Source: Bacilli bacterium
GTDB taxonomy: Bacteria > Bacillota_I > Bacilli_A > RFN20 > DUOF01
NCBI GenBank assembly: GCA_017517765.1
Contig: JAFWYE010000010.1
Coordinates: 2,432-66,431, forward strand
Reading direction: 5' to 3'
DNA length: 64,000 nt
Shown here piece by piece: positions 35,809 to 52,214 of the stretch; within the stretch, counting starts at the first letter, position 1, and every line of letters starts with the position of its first letter. The position numbers and the translations under genes were made by a program. The notes under the pieces are model-generated. The model did no database searches, had not been told where the DNA came from, and saw only the letters and a program-made list of their open reading frames with translations.

Positions 35809-36957
35809 ATGGCACAAAATAAAAGAGACTATTATGAAGTCTTGGGTATAGATAAAAGTGCGGATCAAGATACAATAAAGAAAGCATATAGAACACTTGC
35901 TAAAAAATACCACCCTGATATTAATAAATCTGAGGATGCAGTAGAAAAATTTAAAGAAGTACAAGAGGCTTATGAAATATTAAGTGATGAGAATAAAAAA
36001 TCTCTGTATGATCGTTATGGTCATGCAGGGGTTGATCCTCAAGCTAATGGTGGCTTTGGTGCTGGTGGATTCGGTGGAGCCAATGGTTTTAATTTCGGCG
36101 AATTCGATATGGGAGATATTTTCTCTTCTTTCTTTGGGGGAAGAGGTGCATCTCAGGGCGCTAGACGAACTTCACCTATGCAAGGAGAAGATAAATATCT
36201 TCAAATGGAAATTGACTTCTTAGAGGCGGCTTTTGGATGTAAAAAAGTTATTGCTTTAAATGTTGATGAACGTTGTAACGAGTGTAAGGGAACTGGTGCT
36301 AAAAATGGTACTGAGTTTGAAACTTGTCCTGATTGTCATGGTCATGGTAGTGTAAGAACACAACAAAGAACAATGTTTGGTGTATTTGAAACAACAACTA
36401 CATGTCCAAAATGTAATGGTAAAGGTAAAGTTATAAAAACTAAATGTGATGCATGTCATGGAGAAGGATATAACAGAAGAAAGGTTAATGTTGATGTAAA
36501 TGTACCTGCGGGTATAAATTCTGGACAACAACTTAGAATTGCTGGTAAGGGTGAAAGAGGAATTAATGGAGGTCCTAATGGGGATTTATATATCGAAATT
36601 CTTGTTTCAAACCATAAGCATTTTACTAGAAAAGGTACTGATATATACGTGACAATTCCTATATCATATGTCGATGCTGTTCTTGGATGTAAGATAGATG
36701 TTCCTACAATTCATGGTGATGTAAGTGTTGAGGTGCCATCTGGTATTCAAAATGCACAACAACTTAGAATTAAAGGTAAGGGTATAAAAGACTTAAGAAG
36801 CAATTCGATTGGTGATGAATATATAATTTTGGATATCAAAGTTCCTACTAAGTTATCTAAAGATGAAAAAGAATTATATAAAAAGCTTAAAGGAATTGAA
36901 GAAAAGCAAGGAGATAGTATCTTTGCAAAGTTTAAAAAAGCATTTAAATTAAAATAA
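35809..36957 (+). CDS. dnaJ: Molecular chaperone DnaJ
   Basis: J domain with HPD, a G/F region and four CxxCxGxG repeats. Confidence 0.97.
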
Positions 36958-36986
36958 GAGTTGAGTTTACTTAACTCTTTTTTTTC
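36956..36986 (+). terminator. Rho-independent terminator after dnaJ
   Basis: 10-bp stem aagagttgag / cttaactctt, loop ttta, 8-T run. Confidence 0.8.
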
Positions 36987-37105
36987 TTATTAGTATAATA
37001 AGAATATGTAGTTAATTGTAAAAAATTGTAAATCAGTGTTATTTTTTTAAAATTATAAGTTAATTTATGGTTTAAAATAACAATCTTTTTAAAAGAAAAG
37101 TTCAA

Positions 37106-37146: not shown

Positions 37147-37857
37147 GTGGAGGGGATTAGTATTAGTAAGAGATATTATTGGAAGAAAATCAGAGTGGCA
37201 TTGCTAATTCTAGCTTTTGCTATTACTTGGTTTTTACTTGTCCTTGCAATTAATGACAATACAAATGGTAATATGACTATTTATGTAGATAAAACTACTG
37301 CTAAAAAAACGCTTAGTTTATCTGAGTCTAGTCAGCTTACTGATCCAACAGGATTATTATATGGTCCATCAATGACTGGGGCTTGGGATCAAGATCCAGG
37401 TGCATTACCAGATTATTCGGATTTAATTGATGGAGACCAAAGTAGATTTGATGGTGCAATTTATGATTCTAGCCCTTCTGTAAATAAATATGTTGGTCAA
37501 AATTATTTGGCTTACACTTTCTATTTGTTTAATAGTGGTAGCGAGTCACTTGATTATTCTATGAAATTTAATATAGAACATGAAGAAAAATCTTTAGGAG
37601 ATGCCATTAGAGTTAGAGTATATGAAGATAGCGAAATTCCTACAACATATGGAAGAGAAGATTCTAGAGCAAGTGACGTATTTACTAATTTTGAAAATTC
37701 TACAACTATATTTACTAGAAACTATGAGGATTTTGAGGTGAATCAAGTCAGAAAATATAGTATTGTAATTTGGATTGATAAAAATGACATAGATACAACT
37801 AATGAAAAGATTGGTGGATCAATTAACTTGTCTATCCAATTTACGGTTACAGGATAG
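37147..37857 (+). CDS. Cluster gene A: signal-anchored or secreted protein (236 aa), paralog of gene B, possibly a TasA/camelysin-like beta-sandwich
   Basis: Basic n-region KRYYWKKIR plus a hydrophobic segment VALLILAFAITWFLLVLAI. The C-terminal motif is KYSIVIWIDKNDIDTTNEKIGGSINLSIQFTV. The start is uncertain because the GTG at 37147 lies inside an SD-like AGGTGGAGGGG. Confidence 0.6.
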   Translation: MEGISISKRYYWKKIRVALLILAFAITWFLLVLAINDNTNGNMTIYVDKTTAKKTLSLSESSQLTDPTGLLYGPSMTGAWDQDPGALPDYSDLIDGDQSRFDGAIYDSSPSVNKYVGQNYLAYTFYLFNSGSESLDYSMKFNIEHEEKSLGDAIRVRVYEDSEIPTTYGREDSRASDVFTNFENSTTIFTRNYEDFEVNQVRKYSIVIWIDKNDIDTTNEKIGGSINLSIQFTVTG

Positions 37858-37870
37858 GGGAGTGAGTGAT

Positions 37871-38698
37871 ATGAATTTTTTGAAAAAGTTATCTCTCTAT
37901 ATATGTATATTTGTTTTGACTATTAGTGTTTCATCTGTTGTTTATGCTGGGTTTACTAGACAATATACTCCTCAAGTAAAATCGTTTGGTATTACTGTAG
38001 CAACTCAAGAAAACATGCTTATCTCTACAACAGGAGATCCTTCAACATTTGCTGATATGGTTCAATTTTCTGATTTGGTTTCTAGTACAGATACTAATAT
38101 CCAACCATTAGAAGCAACAATTGAAGAAACTGGTAATGATTATACTAATCTTATTTTGAAAGATGGCGGAGGAAATACGGTATATACAAGTAAAACATCT
38201 GATGATAACGTTAATGTTAATGAAAAATATATAGAATTCAATTTGTATTTTATTGGAAGTAGCGATATGAATTTATATCTAGGGAATGATAGTGTTAGAA
38301 ACATTATTACATTAGATGAAAGTTCTACTGCTAATTTGAGTTTTACTGCAACTCAAAAGCAAACTTTATTATCTAGTATGAGAATAGCATTTCTAACATA
38401 TGCTACAACTTATCCTGAAGATTATACTGGTATTAATATAAGATATAGCGATTCGCCTGTATCTGCAAATATTTACTCAGTTTCTGCAACTGGAGATACA
38501 TATGAAGATTATATGTTTACTGAAGTTGGATATAACACAACTACTAGAGAAGGAACTATACTTGCTGAAACAATAAAAAATGAAACAACAAAGATAAAAG
38601 TTGTTATTTGGCTTGAAGGTGCCAATTTGGATACATCAATACTTAGCGCAATTGCTGATTTGAAATTTAATATAGCATTTCAAGCTGTTAAAGTTTAG
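37871..38698 (+). CDS. Cluster gene B: secreted protein (275 aa), paralog of gene A
   Basis: The ATG follows the RBS GGGGAG. The signal peptide MNFLKKLSLYICIFVLTISVSSVVYAGFT ends like SipW/TasA-type signal peptides. The C-terminal motif KIKVVIWLEGANLDTSILSAIADLKFNIAFQAV aligns with that of gene A. Confidence 0.65.
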   Translation: MNFLKKLSLYICIFVLTISVSSVVYAGFTRQYTPQVKSFGITVATQENMLISTTGDPSTFADMVQFSDLVSSTDTNIQPLEATIEETGNDYTNLILKDGGGNTVYTSKTSDDNVNVNEKYIEFNLYFIGSSDMNLYLGNDSVRNIITLDESSTANLSFTATQKQTLLSSMRIAFLTYATTYPEDYTGINIRYSDSPVSANIYSVSATGDTYEDYMFTEVGYNTTTREGTILAETIKNETTKIKVVIWLEGANLDTSILSAIADLKFNIAFQAVKV

Positions 38699-38712
38699 AA
38701 GGGAGAATAGAT

Positions 38713-40599
38713 ATGTCTGGATTTACAAAATTTTTTGGAAGAATAATGTCGGTTTTATGGAAAGATATCATAGCTTTCTTTAAGAGCATATTTGATTTTA
38801 TTGTAGGTATATTTCAAAAACTTATTAGTGATTTTTCTTACTATAAGTCAGTTTTTGATTTATATTCACAAGATTTCGATGCTTTAGGATGGATATTATT
38901 TGTTTTATCTATTTTATTAGTTTTAGGTTTATTTGCTCTTTTAGTTTGGGGTATCTATAAGATAAGTAAAAGAAGGTACGTTGCTAAAAGAAAAGTTAAA
39001 GATAAAATTGTTCTTTTAAGAGAAATAGATAAGTTAAATAATAAAGTTATTGACTTGATGGATCAAAGAAGCCAATTATTAGCATTAAAAACAGCTGAAC
39101 TTGGGTATGCTCCAACTAAAGAGGATTTAAAGAAAATTGAAGCAGCTAGAAAAAGAGCACAAGAAGCAATTGATAATCCTGAAGAAAATAAGTATGTTGG
39201 ATTTAAATTTAAAACAACTAAGAAAGGTGCCCCTGTATTTGATAAAAGAGGATTACCTGTTATTGAGCTTGAATATAAGCTTGGAGAAGATGGAAAACCT
39301 TTATTAGATGAAAATAAAAAACCTATACCTTTAATTGAATTTAAAACAGATAAAAAAGGTAAAATTTTATTTGATGCTAATGGATTACCAATTCCTGTTG
39401 ATCCAGTTGCTGCAGAAAATCAAATTGAAGCAGATAAAGCACTTGAAGGTGAAGGAAATCAAGAAGTTGGTGAAGATGGAGAAGCAATTCCTAGTGACTT
39501 AATTGCTAAAGCTAGATTCCCTAAACTTATTCGTATTGACTGGGACTATAGAAACTATGAATTTCCTGGTATGACAGAAGAAGATAAAAAGATGAATTTA
39601 AAAGAACTTGTAGATCGTTTTAGAAATTTCGCTGCAGGAAAATTACATCTATACTATAGTTTTAGAACTTTAGCATTATTCTTCTCTGGAATGGGAACAA
39701 CAAGATTTGCTATTCTTGAGGGTATCTCAGGTACAGGTAAAACTTCACTTCCATATGCATTTGGTAAATTCTTTAGAAATAGAAGTCCTATCGTTGCTGT
39801 TCAACCTTCATGGAAGGATAGATCAGAACTTATTGGATATCTAAATGAGTTTACTAAGAAGTTTAATGAATCTGTTTTCCTTGAAGAATTATATAAAATT
39901 GCTAAGCAAAAGGACCCACATATTTTGGTTCTAGACGAAATGAACTTGGCTCGTATTGAGTATTATTTCGCTGACTTCCTATCTATCATGGAAATGCCTA
40001 GTATGGATGAATGGATTATTGAAATTGTTAATACTGACCTTGAAGGTGACCCTGTGTTACTAGACCATGGTAAGTTCCTTATTCCAAAGAATGTTTGGTT
40101 CCTTGGAACAGCTAATAACGATGACTCTACATTCTCAATTACAGATAAGGTTTATGACCGTGCTATGAGTATGTCACTTAATAAAAAGACTGAAGTATTC
40201 GAACCTGAATGGGATGCAGATAGTATGTATATGGACAATGAGTTCTTTGTACAACTATTTGAAGATGCTAAAGCTAAATATTCAATTAGTGAAGAGGCTT
40301 TATCTAAGTTAGCTGCAATTGATAAATATATGGTACAAAACTTCAAGATTTCTTTCGGTAACCGTATCATGAAACAATTCAGATTATTTGTTCCTTGTTA
40401 TATTGGTTGTGGAGGAGAAGAATATGATGCGCTAGACCACCTTATTACACGTAAGATTTTACATAAACTAGAAGCATTGAATATTTCATTCATTAAGAAT
40501 GAATTAAAAGGATTAATTGTAGAAATTAATAAACAATTTGGAAAAGATGCATTTAGCGATGCAAAAGAATATATTAATGACTTATTGAAACAAGTATAA
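38713..40599 (+). CDS. Cluster gene C: membrane-anchored McrB-family AAA+ NTPase (628 aa)
   Basis: TM segment at aa 57-82, followed by a basic cluster. Next come a coiled coil, three 20-aa repeats, and Walker A GISGTGKT (39721-39744). Walker B and the McrB signature read LVLDEMNLARIEYYFADFLSIME (compare E. coli McrB DEINRANLSKVFGEVMMLME). GTANNDDST corresponds to GTMNTADRS. Confidence 0.7.
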   Translation: MSGFTKFFGRIMSVLWKDIIAFFKSIFDFIVGIFQKLISDFSYYKSVFDLYSQDFDALGWILFVLSILLVLGLFALLVWGIYKISKRRYVAKRKVKDKIVLLREIDKLNNKVIDLMDQRSQLLALKTAELGYAPTKEDLKKIEAARKRAQEAIDNPEENKYVGFKFKTTKKGAPVFDKRGLPVIELEYKLGEDGKPLLDENKKPIPLIEFKTDKKGKILFDANGLPIPVDPVAAENQIEADKALEGEGNQEVGEDGEAIPSDLIAKARFPKLIRIDWDYRNYEFPGMTEEDKKMNLKELVDRFRNFAAGKLHLYYSFRTLALFFSGMGTTRFAILEGISGTGKTSLPYAFGKFFRNRSPIVAVQPSWKDRSELIGYLNEFTKKFNESVFLEELYKIAKQKDPHILVLDEMNLARIEYYFADFLSIMEMPSMDEWIIEIVNTDLEGDPVLLDHGKFLIPKNVWFLGTANNDDSTFSITDKVYDRAMSMSLNKKTEVFEPEWDADSMYMDNEFFVQLFEDAKAKYSISEEALSKLAAIDKYMVQNFKISFGNRIMKQFRLFVPCYIGCGGEEYDALDHLITRKILHKLEALNISFIKNELKGLIVEINKQFGKDAFSDAKEYINDLLKQV

Positions 40600-40620: not shown

Positions 40621-42306
40621 ATGGCTACTGATATAATTAAGAAATTTTGGGATAAATTAAGCCGTAGGCATGATAATCTTGGCAGAGATGATTCTTTTTA
40701 CGCACTTTTTTCTAATGGCTTTGATAGAGCTAAGATTAAGCTAGATCATATCACTAGAGTTGTAGTTAGAGAGTATGATGAAGAAACATTAAAGAAAATA
40801 GAAGATGGATTAGTAGCCATAGACACAATTGTAAGAAATCCTAAGCAATTCCTGAAGGTTGATGATGAAATCATCCCAGTAGAACTTGCTAAAAAAGTAA
40901 ATCAAGATTCTATTAAACATTTATCTAGCCATTCTCATCTTATTAATAGAGTTGAAGATGATGGAATGGTTATGCCAACTAGAATTCTTACTGGATTAAA
41001 AGATGACACTATTAATTTGTATGAGAACAGATTTGTTAGATCTCTTATTATTAACTTAGTTACTTTCTTTGATAGAAGATTTAGTGAGTTTTTAGATGAT
41101 GTAGATTTTTCATCTATGACTAAATTAGATAATAAAACTGCTTTTGTAGTAAGAAATTCTCAAATTAATTTAGATTTGCAAATGACTATTGTTACAGATA
41201 ACTTCAATAGAGATGACATTATTCAACTTGATGACTTATTTAGAAGAGTTGCTTGGATTAAGCATACTCTAGCTAAGTTATATGACTCTGATTTTATGAA
41301 GAGGCTTAATGGAGAAAAATTGGTAGTAGGTGAAATAAAAAGAACTAATACTATTAAAGGACACCCTCAATACAATATTTGCTATCATTTATGGAATCAC
41401 ATCATGAACTATCAAGGCATGGTTTTAGATTTTAGGGTAGAAGAAATTCCTATTGTTTTAAGCGATAAATATAAAAAGAAAATGAATAAGGCTTTCATGT
41501 ATCTTCATGGGGCAATTGATGCAGCTCAAAAAGATAATGAAAAATATGTTGAAGCATTAAATAAATCTTTAAATCTTAATATTAAACAGGGTAAAGTTAA
41601 GCTTATCAAGGATACTATTGATAGAAGCCAAGTTGAAGTTGTTAAAGAGGAACTTGATAAAACTATCTTTAAACCCGAACAACAAAAAGCTCTTGATAAA
41701 CTTTATGCAGAAAAAGAAAAACTTGAAACTCAACTTTCAGAGATGAAAGAAAGACATAGAGAAAAAGAAAGAGAAAATAGGGAAATGGAAGCTAATAAGA
41801 AAGAGTTCATTATCCTTAAAGAAAGAGAAATTAAAGATTTATTGAGAATGAAGCAATATGCCAAGGATAGTGCTGTTGTTAGAGCAAGAGATAAGAAAGA
41901 AAAAGAAATCGCTGCTCAAGAAGCTAAAAAAGTTGCGATTGTTAGAAATAAGAAATATGATGTTGTTTCTAAACTTGTTTCTTGGGAAGATAAGAAGAAA
42001 ATTAGTGAAAGAAGTATTGAGAAAGCTAATGGAAGTAAAGTTCTTCTTAATAGAGAAATTAAAGCTGGTATTAGAGTGGAAGAAAATACAGCTGAATTAA
42101 AGAAGATTGAGGCAGATATTATTCAATGGAATAAAACTATTGAAATGGCTAAGAAAAAGCGTGTTATTTTAGAGCAAGAAGAAGAGAGACTACAAGCTCA
42201 AATTGATAAAATTAATGCTTCTAATAAAGCTAGAAGAGAGAAACGTAGAGCAATATTGAAAGAAAAGAATAATCGTTTGATGTCTCAATATGAAGATTTA
42301 AAATAG
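40621..42306 (+). CDS. Cluster gene D: McrC/DUF2357-like N-terminal domain fused to a roughly 220-aa Lys/Glu-rich coiled coil (561 aa)
   Basis: It sits immediately downstream of the McrB-like gene. The LYENRFVRSLIINLVTF motif (41020-41040) resembles the xENRF[VIL] motif of DUF2357/McrC-like partners. No clear PD-(D/E)xK motif is visible. aa 335-561 carry a heptad-like K/E/R-rich sequence. Confidence 0.55.
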   Translation: MATDIIKKFWDKLSRRHDNLGRDDSFYALFSNGFDRAKIKLDHITRVVVREYDEETLKKIEDGLVAIDTIVRNPKQFLKVDDEIIPVELAKKVNQDSIKHLSSHSHLINRVEDDGMVMPTRILTGLKDDTINLYENRFVRSLIINLVTFFDRRFSEFLDDVDFSSMTKLDNKTAFVVRNSQINLDLQMTIVTDNFNRDDIIQLDDLFRRVAWIKHTLAKLYDSDFMKRLNGEKLVVGEIKRTNTIKGHPQYNICYHLWNHIMNYQGMVLDFRVEEIPIVLSDKYKKKMNKAFMYLHGAIDAAQKDNEKYVEALNKSLNLNIKQGKVKLIKDTIDRSQVEVVKEELDKTIFKPEQQKALDKLYAEKEKLETQLSEMKERHREKERENREMEANKKEFIILKEREIKDLLRMKQYAKDSAVVRARDKKEKEIAAQEAKKVAIVRNKKYDVVSKLVSWEDKKKISERSIEKANGSKVLLNREIKAGIRVEENTAELKKIEADIIQWNKTIEMAKKKRVILEQEEERLQAQIDKINASNKARREKRRAILKEKNNRLMSQYEDLK

Positions 42307-42314
42307 GTGATTAT

Positions 42315-43037
42315 ATGCAAGAGTATTTTGCGATTAATAAAATAAATGAAAAATTTATCTTGTCTGAACAAGATAATTTTCATATTGAAAGAGTTTTAAG
42401 AATGAAAAATGGTGATCATATAATAGTCACTTATGAATCTAAAAAATATGATTGTATTATTGATTTTAAAAACGGATTAAATGTTACGTATTTTTGTGAG
42501 TTAGAAGTTTCTAATGAGTTAGAATGTGAGGTTACTTTAATATATGGATTGCCAAAAAAAGATAAATTTGAAATGGTAGTACAAAAAAGTTGTGAACTAG
42601 GTGTTACTTCTATTGTCCCTTTTTTAGCTAAAAGAAGTATTCCTGTACTTGATGATAAAAATACAAATAAGAAGTTAGAAAGATGGAATATGATTGCTAA
42701 AGAAGCATGCGAACAATCAAAAAGAAATGAACTAGTTAAAGTTGTTCAACCAGTGAAATTAAAAGATCTATTAAACTATAAAAGTGAACTTAATTTGATT
42801 GCATATGAAGATTTAAATTGTGTTGGTAGTAGTCATTTATATTCACTTCTTGGAAATAATCCTAAAAGTATTACAATAGTTGTTGGACCTGAGGGTGGAT
42901 TTGATAAAGGTGAAGTAGATTTCTTAAGTGAAAATGGATTTATTTCTGTATCTTTAGGAAAAAGAATACTAAGAAGTGAAACTGCACCTTTATATATGCT
43001 TAGTGTCATTGGATTTATGAATGAGAGGAATAAGTAG
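42315..43037 (+). CDS. rsmE: 16S rRNA (uracil1498-N3)-methyltransferase
   Basis: RsmE layout with a C-terminal GPEGGF...E......G...VSLG.RILR.ETA. Confidence 0.85.
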   Translation: MQEYFAINKINEKFILSEQDNFHIERVLRMKNGDHIIVTYESKKYDCIIDFKNGLNVTYFCELEVSNELECEVTLIYGLPKKDKFEMVVQKSCELGVTSIVPFLAKRSIPVLDDKNTNKKLERWNMIAKEACEQSKRNELVKVVQPVKLKDLLNYKSELNLIAYEDLNCVGSSHLYSLLGNNPKSITIVVGPEGGFDKGEVDFLSENGFISVSLGKRILRSETAPLYMLSVIGFMNERNK

Positions 43038-45280: not shown

Positions 45281-45286
45281 TAAGTG

Positions 45287-45316
45287 AAAAGTCCTAAAGT
45301 TAGGACTTTTTTCTTT
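45287..45316 (+). terminator. Rho-independent terminator after rpsU
   Basis: Stem aaaagtccta / taggactttt, T-run. Confidence 0.8.
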
Positions 45317-51384: not shown

Positions 51385-51414
51385 GGTGGTATTACTTGAA
51401 TATCGCCTTTTTTT
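51385..51414 (+). terminator. Rho-independent terminator after deoB
   Basis: Stem ggtggtatt / aatatcgcc (two G-U pairs), loop acttg, 7-T run. Confidence 0.65.
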
Positions 51415-51465
51415 ATTCCCTTCCCTACAATTTTACACAACTTTATTTTTTATCTTCTCATTAAG

Positions 51466-51494
51466 TTGAAGCTCTTGCCTTGCTTTTATATAAT
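51466..51494 (+). promoter_or_regulatory. Candidate sigma-A promoter
   Basis: TTGAAG, 17 nt, TATAAT, about 30 nt upstream of the RBS GAGGTGA. Confidence 0.45.
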
Positions 51495-51525
51495 AGGTTT
51501 ATACGGATTATTGAGGTGATTTACT

Positions 51526-51921
51526 ATGAAACACACTACATTAGATGTAAAGGCTATCGTTACCAAGGAAACTCTTGATAGAATGGCTGAAAAACAAAAA
51601 ACAGATAAGCCTATAACTCCTGAGGATGCTCCTACTAATGCTGAAATTACTGAAGGACGATCTAGAGAAAATTTAACTAGAGGCCAAAGATGGAGAATTA
51701 AGTTAAAGGCTGCTGGTGGTATGCTTGTTAAAGGATTAATTGCAGCAGCAGCAGTTATTGGTGTTATTAAACTATTTAATCCTGCTTTTGCTATACCTGC
51801 ATTACTTGTAGGTGCTGCTAACATGGGTACAATCGCTGATTTTGCATGTAAAGCAGTAGCGGCCTTCAAAGATGGTGCCACTGCCCTATTTACTAAAGCA
51901 ATGCCAGCAGGAGCGAGGTGA
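51526..51921 (+). CDS. Ala/Gly-rich small protein (131 aa): polar N-terminal half plus two hydrophobic or amphipathic helices
   Basis: Good RBS and promoter. The C-terminal half reads GGMLVKGLIAAAAVIGVIKLFNPAFAIPALLVGAANMGTIADFACKAVAAFKDGATALF. It is locally GC-richer than its surroundings. Confidence 0.6.
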   Translation: MKHTTLDVKAIVTKETLDRMAEKQKTDKPITPEDAPTNAEITEGRSRENLTRGQRWRIKLKAAGGMLVKGLIAAAAVIGVIKLFNPAFAIPALLVGAANMGTIADFACKAVAAFKDGATALFTKAMPAGAR

Positions 51922-51927
51922 AATTAA

Positions 51928-52188
51928 TTGGATAACGTAATTCAAAAAGATGATGTTGTTGTATTATCAGATAACAAAAGTTATTCTGTTTTGAGAGTTT
52001 TTGAATATGAGGGAGATTCATATGTGGTGTTTCTTCAAAGAACTGACTATGATGAAAAAAATCCCGTTGTTTTGTTTGCTAGGGAAAGAGTAGACGATGA
52101 AAAAGTTTCAGTAGACATTATTTTAGATGAAGATTTTATACGTGAACTTTCTGCTCACTTACAAAGCATTTCAGATGATAATGAATAA
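51928..52188 (+). CDS. DUF1292-family protein
   Basis: 86 aa. VVLSDNKSYSVLRVFEYEGDSYVVFLQ...VLFARE...DEDF fits the DUF1292 pattern. The TTG start follows the RBS GAGGTGA. Confidence 0.55.
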   Translation: MDNVIQKDDVVVLSDNKSYSVLRVFEYEGDSYVVFLQRTDYDEKNPVVLFARERVDDEKVSVDIILDEDFIRELSAHLQSISDDNE

Positions 52189-52214
52189 AGAGATCGATTG
52201 ATCTCTTTTTTTAT
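52188..52214. terminator. Hairpin between convergent genes (probably a bidirectional terminator)
   Basis: Stem aagagatc / gatctctt, loop gatt, T-run on the plus strand. Confidence 0.6.

Follow-up and report, generated by a model that had tools for sequence, protein, structure and literature searches.

Textbooks present McrBC as the GTP-driven restriction nuclease, and the prevailing view of TasA and AbpA fibers is that their assembly needs no energy source. McrC of both E. coli and T. gammatolerans uses its nuclease domain to dimerize and thereby links two hexamers (PMC6624300, PMC7680126). A relative termed CoCoPALM was named by Bell et al. (eLife 2024, PMC11090510) and comprises an McrB GTPase with a transmembrane (TM) helix and coiled coil, an McrC homologue that also carries a coiled coil, and genes of the signal-peptidase family. 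The coverage of CoCoPALM in that work amounts to one paragraph, which calls the McrB N-terminus FtsB-like and leaves the McrC homologue and the secreted proteins unanalyzed (PMC11090510). DUF2357 is treated there as the equivalent of the McrC N-domain, and the sister CoCoNuT systems are predicted to be defense systems (PMC11090510). Our literature search retrieved no follow-up CoCoPALM paper and none linking SipW or TasA with McrB. The gene cluster described here lies in a 64-kb window (the whole stretch of DNA analyzed) and is of the CoCoPALM type, a kind already named but little described; an earlier sequence-only reading of this DNA had missed the name.

Gene order and the McrB-like GTPase

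38713 to 40599, plus strand: McrB-like AAA+ GTPase, 628 aa (weak AAA_5 and PRK11331 McrB matches, BLASTP, PADLOC)
38893 to 38949 (aa 61-79): TM helix of the McrB-like protein, by hydropathy
aa ~84-130 of the McrB-like protein: basic patch and short helical zipper
39190 to 39417 (aa ~160-235): K/G/P-rich linker of the McrB-like protein, with three ~20-aa repeats
aa ~312-628 of the McrB-like protein: GTPase core
40621 to 42306, plus strand: gene D, McrC-like, an ORF of 561 aa with an ATG start

Gene D occupies the position of McrC relative to McrB, as the sequence-only reading had proposed. The McrB-like gene ends at 40599 and D starts 21 nt further on the same strand, with AGGAG 8 nt 5′ of its ATG; rsmE starts at 42315, directly 3′ of the D end at 42306. 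This order, McrB-like gene followed by DUF2357 gene, was kept in all of the ~79 surveyed loci that hold both genes. The D family spans 2367 clusters at 50% identity (E ≤ 1e-3).

By BLASTP (E = 2e-8), the McrB-like protein aligns with E. coli McrB at the Walker A, Walker B, and signature motifs, all of them intact. A set of 81 homologues conserves GISGTGKTS, LDEMNLA, and GTANNDDS. The signature motif, here G-T-A-N-N-D-D-S, takes the form N-[NKS]-D-D in 81/81 homologues. One reading of it is the NxD-then-D form described by Bell et al.; the ungapped BLASTP alignment to the E. coli NTAD also permits an NxxD reading. The protein has a TM helix where the DNA-binding domain would be, and a nucleic-acid-binding N-domain is absent. 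A leucine-zipper-like helix follows the TM segment and basic patch, with a heptad signal that is not significant (p = 0.14). Pfam searches of the N-terminal 170 aa for FtsB or DivIC gave no significant match, the best being FtsL_2 (E = 0.18) in a relative.

DUF2357 domain of D and absence of a recognizable nuclease

40621 to 41625, plus strand: N-terminal 335 aa of D, comprising a DUF2357 (McrC N-terminal/finger-type) domain and a further α/β region

Pfam DUF2357 (PF09823) matched aa 64-171 of D (nt 40810-41133) with E = 5.8e-9 and 36.0 bits, above the curated cut-off of 23.3 bits, which bears out the DUF2357-like N-domain claimed from the sequence alone. The LYENRF motif starts at 41017/41020, where it had been placed, and Y134-E135-N136 is invariant across 48 D-family members with identity down to ~22%. 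The most conserved block of D, aa 83-123, is a putative stalk and tip. An AlphaFold 2 (AF2) model of the N-domain (pLDDT 71) contains helices and a long β-hairpin at aa 164-193. The most conserved segment is modeled with low confidence.

The structural and profile comparison with McrC that had been proposed yielded no direct link to solved McrC structures. Foldseek with the N-domain model (pLDDT 71) retrieved nothing from the PDB better than E ~1, including no McrC chain and no nuclease; hhalign of the D-family profile against E. coli McrC was null; three PDB sequence/profile searches with D returned chance or designed-protein matches only; and an NCBIfam scan gave no match. In a Pfam scan, E. 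coli McrC itself matches McrBC (PF10117), not PF09823. Since no direct similarity to McrC was found, the link is drawn from the Pfam DUF2357 match, gene order, and the literature. It is extremely unlikely that D is an unrelated coiled-coil protein whose DUF2357 match reflects chance or composition. That reading could appeal to the missing match to E. coli McrC or any solved structure and to the close orthologues of D, some of which score under the Pfam DUF2357 threshold. Against it, the above-cut-off match sits in the nonrepetitive N-domain, is repeated at 43-51 bits in distant relatives only 22-30% identical, and belongs to a gene that an McrB-type GTPase always adjoins.

The absence of a recognizable PD-(D/E)xK nuclease from D, another claim of the sequence-only reading, was upheld by Pfam, alignment, Foldseek, and PDB searches. 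A Pfam scan retrieved no nuclease family even at E ≤ 1, and no conserved acidic/lysine triad is present among 48 aligned family members. NLDLQ (aa 183-187) and VGEIK (aa 235-239), considered as a degenerate catalytic pair, were dropped because neither is conserved: D185 is variable, E237 is replaced by S, A, or P, and K239 by Q or N. Within aa ~172-335, the residues invariant in the 48-sequence alignment are I239, T242, N243, and W258; R209 and L257, invariant among 13 sequences, are near-invariant or variable among the 48. Across all four cluster proteins, Pfam, NCBIfam, and PADLOC detected no HEPN, PD-(D/E)xK, or PLD nuclease and no RNA-binding domain.

Residues ~172-335 do occupy the nuclease position of McrC, and the AF2 model renders them as α/β (hairpin 164-193, strand 269-277, several helices). 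Inactivated PD-(D/E)xK folds are also known in some related CnuC proteins, per Bell et al. D could accordingly be viewed as an ordinary McrC with a diverged nuclease and an added tail, the region being a degenerate or, less likely, cryptically active PD-(D/E)xK domain. We judge this very unlikely given the lack of any nuclease Pfam match at E ≤ 1, of any PDB match with E < 1 by Foldseek or any but chance or designed-protein matches by PDB sequence/profile search, and of a triad kept in the 48 aligned members, together with a predicted strand order that departs from α-β-β-β-α-β. On sequence evidence, D is McrC-like, pairs with a membrane-anchored GTPase of the McrB type in gene order, and appears to have lost the nuclease and gained a coiled-coil tail.

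The D tail forms two predicted coiled-coil segments

41626 to 42306, plus strand: charged helical tail of D, 226 aa (aa 336-561), from composition and periodicity
aa ~350-468 of D: coiled-coil segment 1
42025 to 42075 (aa 469-485): conserved hinge of D, IEKAxG...LNxEIK
aa 486-561 of D: coiled-coil segment 2
41858 to 42100, plus strand: spurious 80-aa alternative-frame ORF inside the tail-coding DNA

Lysine, arginine, aspartate, glutamate, and glutamine make up 52% of aa 336-561 versus 34% of the N-terminal part, and proline plus glycine only 1.3%. In a 41-orthologue profile, a hydrophobic periodicity of 3.5 residues is significant at aa 350-468 (p ~0.005) and aa 486-561 (p < 0.0005) but does not reach significance over the hinge (aa 469-485). 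Composition and periodicity thus support the long charged coiled coil of the sequence-only reading; its description as almost pure heptad was slightly overstated, as there are two segments joined by a conserved hinge. The coding strand is purine-rich here as reported (66.5% in the tail DNA vs 55%), and the internal ORF at 41858-42100 is present in a frame other than that of D, a spurious product of T-poor, purine-rich DNA.

The tail contains no internal indels in 41 orthologues, its length differing only in the last few C-terminal residues, despite identity that drops to 35-41%. Tails of like composition were present in 83 of 149 representative clusters. From the absence of indels at such identity, the two heptad segments, the hinge, and this recurrence, we propose that the tail may act as a structural ruler or dimerizer. 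McrC length correlates with McrB length across loci (r = 0.59); being confounded by phylogeny, this correlation was set aside and is not used as evidence.

Neighboring surface proteins and the SipW-type signal peptidases of related loci

37147 to 37857, plus strand: sm236, a 236-aa membrane-anchored protein modeled as a β-sandwich, TasA/AbpA-like, candidate anchor or minor subunit
37871 to 38698, plus strand: sm298, a 275-aa secreted protein with an N-terminal signal and hydrophobic N-terminus, candidate major fiber subunit

Hydropathy places the TM segment of sm236 at aa 17-35. The two best PDB matches to its AF2 model (pLDDT 81) by Foldseek were the AbpA bundling pilus (7ueg_A, E = 6.9e-4) and the TasA fiber (8aur_A, E = 2.1e-3); these matches carry probabilities of 0.97-1.0 but TM-scores of only 0.28-0.35. 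Homologues of sm236 occur in most related loci. For sm298, the start is likely the ATG at 37871, the mechanical ORF start being 37802. Its N-terminal signal ends VVYA-GFT, like SipW/TasA-type signals, and the orthologue in locus L001 carries ATYA-YFSE. A C-terminal motif of 37 columns is common to sm298 and sm236 (hhalign E = 2e-4). Paralogues in locus L004 gave weak TIGR04088/TasA/TapA signal-region matches, below cut-off. Pfam Peptidase_M73 matched none of the cluster proteins, and sequence similarity to TasA was undetectable.

The signal peptidases of related clusters are of the SipW/archaeal signal peptidase I type (TIGR02228), scoring 75-109 bits against a cut-off of 51.85. Most of ~80 related loci encode such a peptidase, as do L001 and L012-L014, which are orthologous loci. 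Neither tblastn nor phmmer located a SipW homologue in the 64-kb window, and the cluster of the nearest relative, L009, also has none.

Locus structure and conservation

36956 to 36979 plus T-run, plus strand: terminator-like hairpin after dnaJ (consensus scan only)
36971 to 36999, plus strand: promoter-like site TTAACT-17-TATAAT, overlapping the hairpin (consensus scan only)

The transcription unit probably has its 5′ limit in the interval 36956-36999; the next plus-strand terminator-like site, at 45286-45311, follows deoC. Scans of the window for Rfam families and tRNAs gave no hits. In 6/6 related genomes of this gut Bacilli lineage, the cluster is flanked by dnaJ and rsmE, or by whichever of the two is on the contig. 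Among relatives, McrB and the McrC N-domain share 70-84% identity, DnaJ 76-78%, and RsmE, MtaB, and DeoC 57-76%; judged by these sequence identities, the motor genes are conserved at least as well as the adjoining housekeeping genes. The surface proteins and D tail diverge fast, with 46-61% identity for sm236 and 31-37% for sm298. The cluster is vertically inherited within a housekeeping operon.

Core-gene-like conservation would also suit a motor that serves cell division, envelope remodeling, or sporulation-type membrane processes instead of fibers, with the FtsB-like TM and coiled-coil region as the key element and D as a cytoskeletal-type scaffold. Bell et al. did call the McrB N-terminus FtsB-like, and the sporulation genes SipL, YunB, and Veg are close to one distant locus. 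Pfam detected no FtsB/DivIC homology, however, and the genes that steadily accompany the cluster over ~80 loci encode SipW-type peptidases and proteins with a TasA signal or TasA fold; they are not division genes. This role is quite improbable.

Another reading makes the cluster a McrBC-derived anti-phage or conflict system, in which the GTPase–McrC pair would sense infection and the membrane and secreted proteins would act as effectors (e.g., by damaging the membrane or by abortive infection), with D as activator or adaptor. McrBC ancestry, the prediction that CoCoNuT sister systems are defensive (PMC11090510), and a match of the GTPase core to the PADLOC defense candidate PDC-M26A (E = 4e-38) all speak for it. 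The PDC-M26A match is confined to ~120 aa of the GTPase core; D and the other non-GTPase proteins match nothing in PADLOC, so the cluster is not a catalogued defense system. The McrB homologue also lacks a nucleic-acid-binding N-domain, the locus is a fixed, vertically inherited housekeeping one, and strong motor-gene conservation relative to rsmE, mtaB, and deoC is the opposite of typical defense-island behavior. We consider a defense function unlikely.

A possible mechanical output of the motor

We think it fairly probable that D is a CoCoPALM-type McrC-homologous subunit and that the motor output is mechanical or organizational, not nucleolytic. Most likely, the motor would assemble, anchor, or position a TasA-like donor-strand fiber at the membrane. 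By analogy with solved McrBC complexes, aa 83-123 of D would form a stalk and tip inserted in the pore of a membrane-tethered McrB-like hexamer, and the adjoining helical bundle (YEN helix) may stimulate GTP hydrolysis one active site at a time. The dimerizing, hexamer-bridging role of the McrC nuclease domain would pass to the two-segment coiled coil, which might dimerize D, or else pair with the N-terminal helices of McrB, and set a fixed spacing. It is from this presumed takeover that a mechanical or organizational output is drawn. The effector other than DNA cleavage envisaged in the sequence-only reading fits a context on which that reading had not drawn: a TM helix in the McrB homologue, surface proteins, SipW in relatives, and vertical inheritance.

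Against the fiber proposal, TasA fibers in Bacillus need no NTPase, and a cytoplasmic motor has no ready role. Also counted against it are the absence of SipW from the window, the low sm236 TM-scores, FtsB homology that was not reproduced, and the heptad p value of 0.14. A broader proposal is possible but doubtful: the McrBC-derived GTPase and nuclease-free D (as rotor/stalk) might constitute an unrecognized class of NTP-powered machine that assembles, anchors, or tensions TasA-type donor-strand fibers in Bacillota and has become core and housekeeping-linked in this lineage of gut Bacilli, with the indel-free D coiled coil as a ruler or dimerizing shaft between two coupled hexamers tethered in the membrane.

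If fiber handling is indeed the output, the cluster would be a clear case of a defense motor re-used for cell-surface biology, the nuclease lost, the motor membrane-anchored, and SipW/TasA-like genes joined. A dedicated GTPase partner would then alter the picture of energy-free fiber assembly for many gut Firmicutes. The D family is large (>2,300 clusters at 50% identity) and uncharacterized, and motor genes conserved like essential genes in this lineage suggest that the system matters for the physiology of gut Bacilli that are abundant and uncultured.

Comparison with known systems

Resemblance is closest to CoCoPALM, with which the cluster shares an McrB-type GTPase bearing an N-terminal TM helix and helical segment, an McrC homologue encoded downstream that has both DUF2357 and a coiled coil, and a signal-peptidase association, seen here in orthologous and related loci; the signature motif can also be read as N-x-D then D. 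It departs from the published description in that this window and L009 have no signal peptidase in the cluster, the locus sits within a dnaJ...rsmE-mtaB-deoC housekeeping context, and the McrB linker has clade-specific ~20-aa repeats. Relative to Bell et al., the new elements are the sm236 fold matches, the SipW/archaeal type of the peptidase, the dnaJ–rsmE locus, the conservation contrast, and the absence of SipW here and in L009.

Canonical McrC (E. coli, T. gammatolerans; PMC6624300, PMC7680126) is likewise encoded directly downstream of an McrB-type GTPase gene and has an N-terminal finger-type domain, per Bell et al.; pore plugging and GTPase stimulation are presumed for D by analogy. D differs in having a ~226-aa coiled coil instead of a PD-(D/E)xK domain or catalytic D...(D/E)xK and in its membrane-anchored partner GTPase without a DNA-binding domain, and neither its sequence nor its fold was detectably similar to E. 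coli McrC. With CoCoNuT CnuC, the cluster has in common a DUF2357 protein with coiled coils, often without an active PD-(D/E)xK, and, on the NxD reading of the motif, the NxD-type McrB branch. CoCoNuTs carry HEPN and other nucleases plus the RNA-binding CSD and YTH domains, none of which was found in this cluster, where the partners are secreted or membrane proteins.

On the fiber side, the B. subtilis tapA-sipW-tasA operon and the AbpA/AbpB bundling pili of Pyrobaculum (PMC9674648, PMC9245690) provide the nearest parallels. Related loci encode a SipW/archaeal-type peptidase, the secreted proteins bear TasA-like signals, and the best PDB matches of the sm236 model are the TasA fiber and AbpA pilus. 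Whereas those fiber systems have no dedicated NTPase, a McrBC-derived motor is the constant partner here.

D is a DUF2357 protein without a nuclease signature

The McrC-like protein D is encoded just downstream of an McrB-like GTPase, itself preceded by genes for two small envelope proteins, sm236 and sm298.

Genes and open reading frames of the cluster
37147-37857, + strand: sm236, N-terminal TM helix plus beta-sandwich (AF2 pLDDT 81)
37871-38698, + strand: sm298, signal ending VVYA-GFT
38713-40599, + strand: McrB-like GTPase, 628 aa
40621-42306, + strand: D, ORF of 561 aa
41858-42100, + strand: spurious out-of-frame ORF within the tail-coding DNA of D

An AGGAG ribosome-binding site precedes the start of the D ORF by 8 nt. 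The ORF begins 21 nt past the stop codon of the GTPase gene and ends 8 nt ahead of rsmE (42315). A Pfam search assigned aa 64-171 to DUF2357 (PF09823; E=5.8e-9; score 36.0 bits where the curated cut-off is 23.3) and returned no other family, E<=1 included; NCBIfam and PADLOC searches with D gave zero matches. The LYENRF motif singled out by the sequence-only reading is indeed present, with Y134-E135-N136 invariant across the widest family alignment (48 sequences, identity down to ~22%).

That reading also reported no convincing nuclease triad, and the alignments agree. NLDLQ and VGEIK were rejected as nuclease residues because neither is conserved among family members: the Asp of the former varies, and in the latter Glu is replaced by S, A or P and Lys by Q or N. 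Past aa 172, only I239, T242, N243 and W258 are invariant in the 48-sequence alignment (R209 and L257, invariant in a narrower set of 13 sequences, lose that status), and judged from the alignment these residues trace no D...(D/E)xK pattern. AF2 modelling of aa 1-345 from a 48-sequence input (pLDDT 71, pTM 0.51) gave a helical bundle, a long beta-hairpin (aa 164-193) and a strand-helix-strand segment (aa 78-128) that is extremely conserved yet of low confidence. Foldseek comparison of the N-domain model with the PDB gave a best E of about 1, with neither a PD-(D/E)xK enzyme nor an McrC chain recovered, and PDB sequence and profile searches with D were empty. Given no nuclease match and no conserved triad, an active nuclease is very unlikely; aa 172-335 may, with low probability, be a structurally degenerate nuclease remnant.

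A comparison of the D family profile with E. coli McrC by hhalign was null, and the E. coli protein belongs to PF10117, not PF09823. The relationship to McrC is argued from the Pfam match, the invariant gene order and a published account that equates DUF2357 with the N-terminal domain of McrC (PMC11090510). The finger domain of T. gammatolerans McrC combines a helical bundle with a long beta "stalk", at whose end a loop-helix-loop tip is touched by all six McrB subunits (PMC7680126). In the D family, conservation peaks in a strand-helix-strand block (aa 83-123), the natural candidate for an equivalent of this stalk and tip.

A hinged tail of fixed length

K/R/D/E/Q account for 52% of aa 336-561 versus 34% of the N-terminal part, and Pro+Gly for 1.3%. 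The tail-coding DNA is 66.5% purine (versus 55%), which explains the ORF at 41858-42100, correctly dismissed earlier as spurious. In an alignment of 41 orthologues the tail has no internal indels, length variation being confined to the last few C-terminal residues, and its identity falls to 35-41% while the N-domain keeps 68-71%. In the same alignment profile, hydrophobic periodicity of 3.5 residues is significant in two stretches, aa 350-468 (p about 0.005) and aa 486-561 (p<0.0005). Between them lies a conserved hinge (aa 469-485, IEKAxG...LNxEIK) that includes a Gly. Together, these features point to two hinged coiled-coil segments of strict length and register. The earlier description of an "almost pure" heptad coiled coil is thus slightly too strong, as a hinge splits the two periodic segments. 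Segment 1 includes a part (EKERENREME...) similar to a charged single alpha-helix, which may form such a helix instead of a coiled coil.

The N-domain profile retrieved >2,700 proteins from a 90%-identity collection and 2,367 clusters at 50% identity (985 at E<=1e-30). Among the top 149 representative clusters, 83 are tailed (up to 879 aa) and 58 tail-less (340-410 aa); the tails are mostly Pro/Gly-poor, with a charged or Ala-rich composition.

A membrane-tethered GTPase and candidate TasA-like envelope proteins

The GTPase matches E. coli McrB (E=2e-8) with Walker A, Walker B and signature loop all aligned, and GISGTGKTS, hhLDEMNxA and G-T-x-N-x-D-D-S are kept in 81 homologues. Where McrB has its DNA-binding N-domain, this protein carries a membrane tether, one strong TM helix (aa 61-79), along with a basic patch, a short zipper-like helix and a K/G/P-rich linker. 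Given the positive-inside rule, the basic patch predicts a cytoplasmic motor. Within the linker are three tandem repeats of ~20 aa (KKGxPxFDxxGxPIxLEYK; aa about 160-235, window 39190-39417), kept in the orthologous locus L001 and clade-specific; McrB homologues of this clade measure 623-634 aa versus about 510 aa elsewhere.

Among 350,542 PDB chains, the sm236 model best matched the bundling pilus AbpA of Pyrobaculum (7ueg_A, E=6.9e-4), followed by the TasA fibre of B. subtilis (8aur_A, E=2.1e-3), with low TM-scores (0.28-0.35). sm298 shares a C-terminal motif with sm236, and the signal of its L001 orthologue (ATYA-YFSE) is close to the TasA-type SipW signal. The mechanical sm298 ORF begins at 37802, overlapping the sm236 end by 56 nt; the true start is likely the ATG at 37871 (MNFLKKLS...), which yields a normal signal peptide. 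A SipW-type signal peptidase gene lies between the sm298 and McrB genes in L001 (7580-8113; compare window 38698-38713) and in L012-L014. The clusters of the window and of L009, its closest relative, lack this gene, and the whole 64-kb window contains no homologue.

A conserved motor at a housekeeping locus

In the window, L009, L001 and L012-L014, the cluster sits between dnaJ and rsmE-mtaB-deoC, or beside whichever of these genes a contig includes. A terminator-like hairpin and promoter-like site follow dnaJ, and the next terminator-like site lies past deoC. Between the window and these five relatives, identities are 70-84% for McrB and the McrC N-domain, 76-78% for DnaJ, 57-76% for RsmE, MtaB and DeoC, 46-61% for sm236, 31-37% for sm298 and 36-67% for the D tail. 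By these values the motor genes behave like a core function passed on by vertical descent, and the genes for extracellular parts diverge fast, as is usual for surface proteins; this combination argues against the cluster being a mobile defence system.

Relatives of 56% identity carry an insertion between the McrC homologue and rsmE that the window lacks; in L001 (12160-16595) it comprises two large paralogues for membrane alpha/beta-hydrolases (768 and 703 aa) plus a small gene for a FakA-like fragment. Up to about 51.3 kb every large ORF of the window is on the + strand, and from about 52.2 kb nearly all are on the - strand; GC skew changes sign at this switch (about 51400-52200). This convergence point could mark a replication terminus or reflect nothing more than coding-strand bias. 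GC ranges from 21 to 33%; the 64-kb window contains no tRNA genes and no Rfam families at the gathering threshold.

Proposed mechanism and relation to CoCoPALM

McrC inserts in the McrB hexamer pore and stimulates GTP hydrolysis, and its nuclease domain is the dimerisation site through which two hexamers are bridged (PMC6624300, PMC7680126). By analogy, the conserved stalk of D would enter the pore of the GTPase hexamer and stimulate hydrolysis, and its coiled coil most plausibly replaces the nuclease domain as dimeriser and bridge, setting a spacing. Work of the cytoplasmic motor would then be aimed at assembly, anchoring or positioning of a TasA-like fibre of Sec-exported subunits, not at DNA. 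The DUF2357 domain, missing nuclease signature and charged coiled-coil tail bear out the original observation on D, and its interpretation as an McrC-position protein with a role other than DNA cleavage is supported.

We surveyed 80 loci from uncultured Bacilli, 'Tenericutes', Izemoplasmatales, Erysipelotrichaceae, Oscillospiraceae and Lachnospiraceae. The McrB-like gene always precedes the DUF2357 gene, and most clusters encode one or two signal peptidases, with TIGR02228/SipW matches above cut-off, together with sm236-like, sm298-like or TasA-signal proteins. L005-L008 and most "short-class" loci encode tail-less McrC homologues (about 370 aa) within a larger conserved gene set (184-, 310- and 332-aa products upstream, 194- and 199-aa products downstream); none of these five has a Pfam assignment, and weak matches link the 194-aa product to signal peptidases and pilin-like proteins.

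Bell et al. named the same architecture CoCoPALM in one paragraph, deferring its analysis (PMC11090510), and our literature search found no later CoCoPALM paper. D is a new member of a system already named and still uncharacterised. The cluster shares with its CoCoPALM kin the McrB-like and DUF2357 gene order, which in related clusters is accompanied by signal peptidases, and has lineage-specific traits: the housekeeping locus, the loss of SipW, the linker repeats and the indel-free tail.
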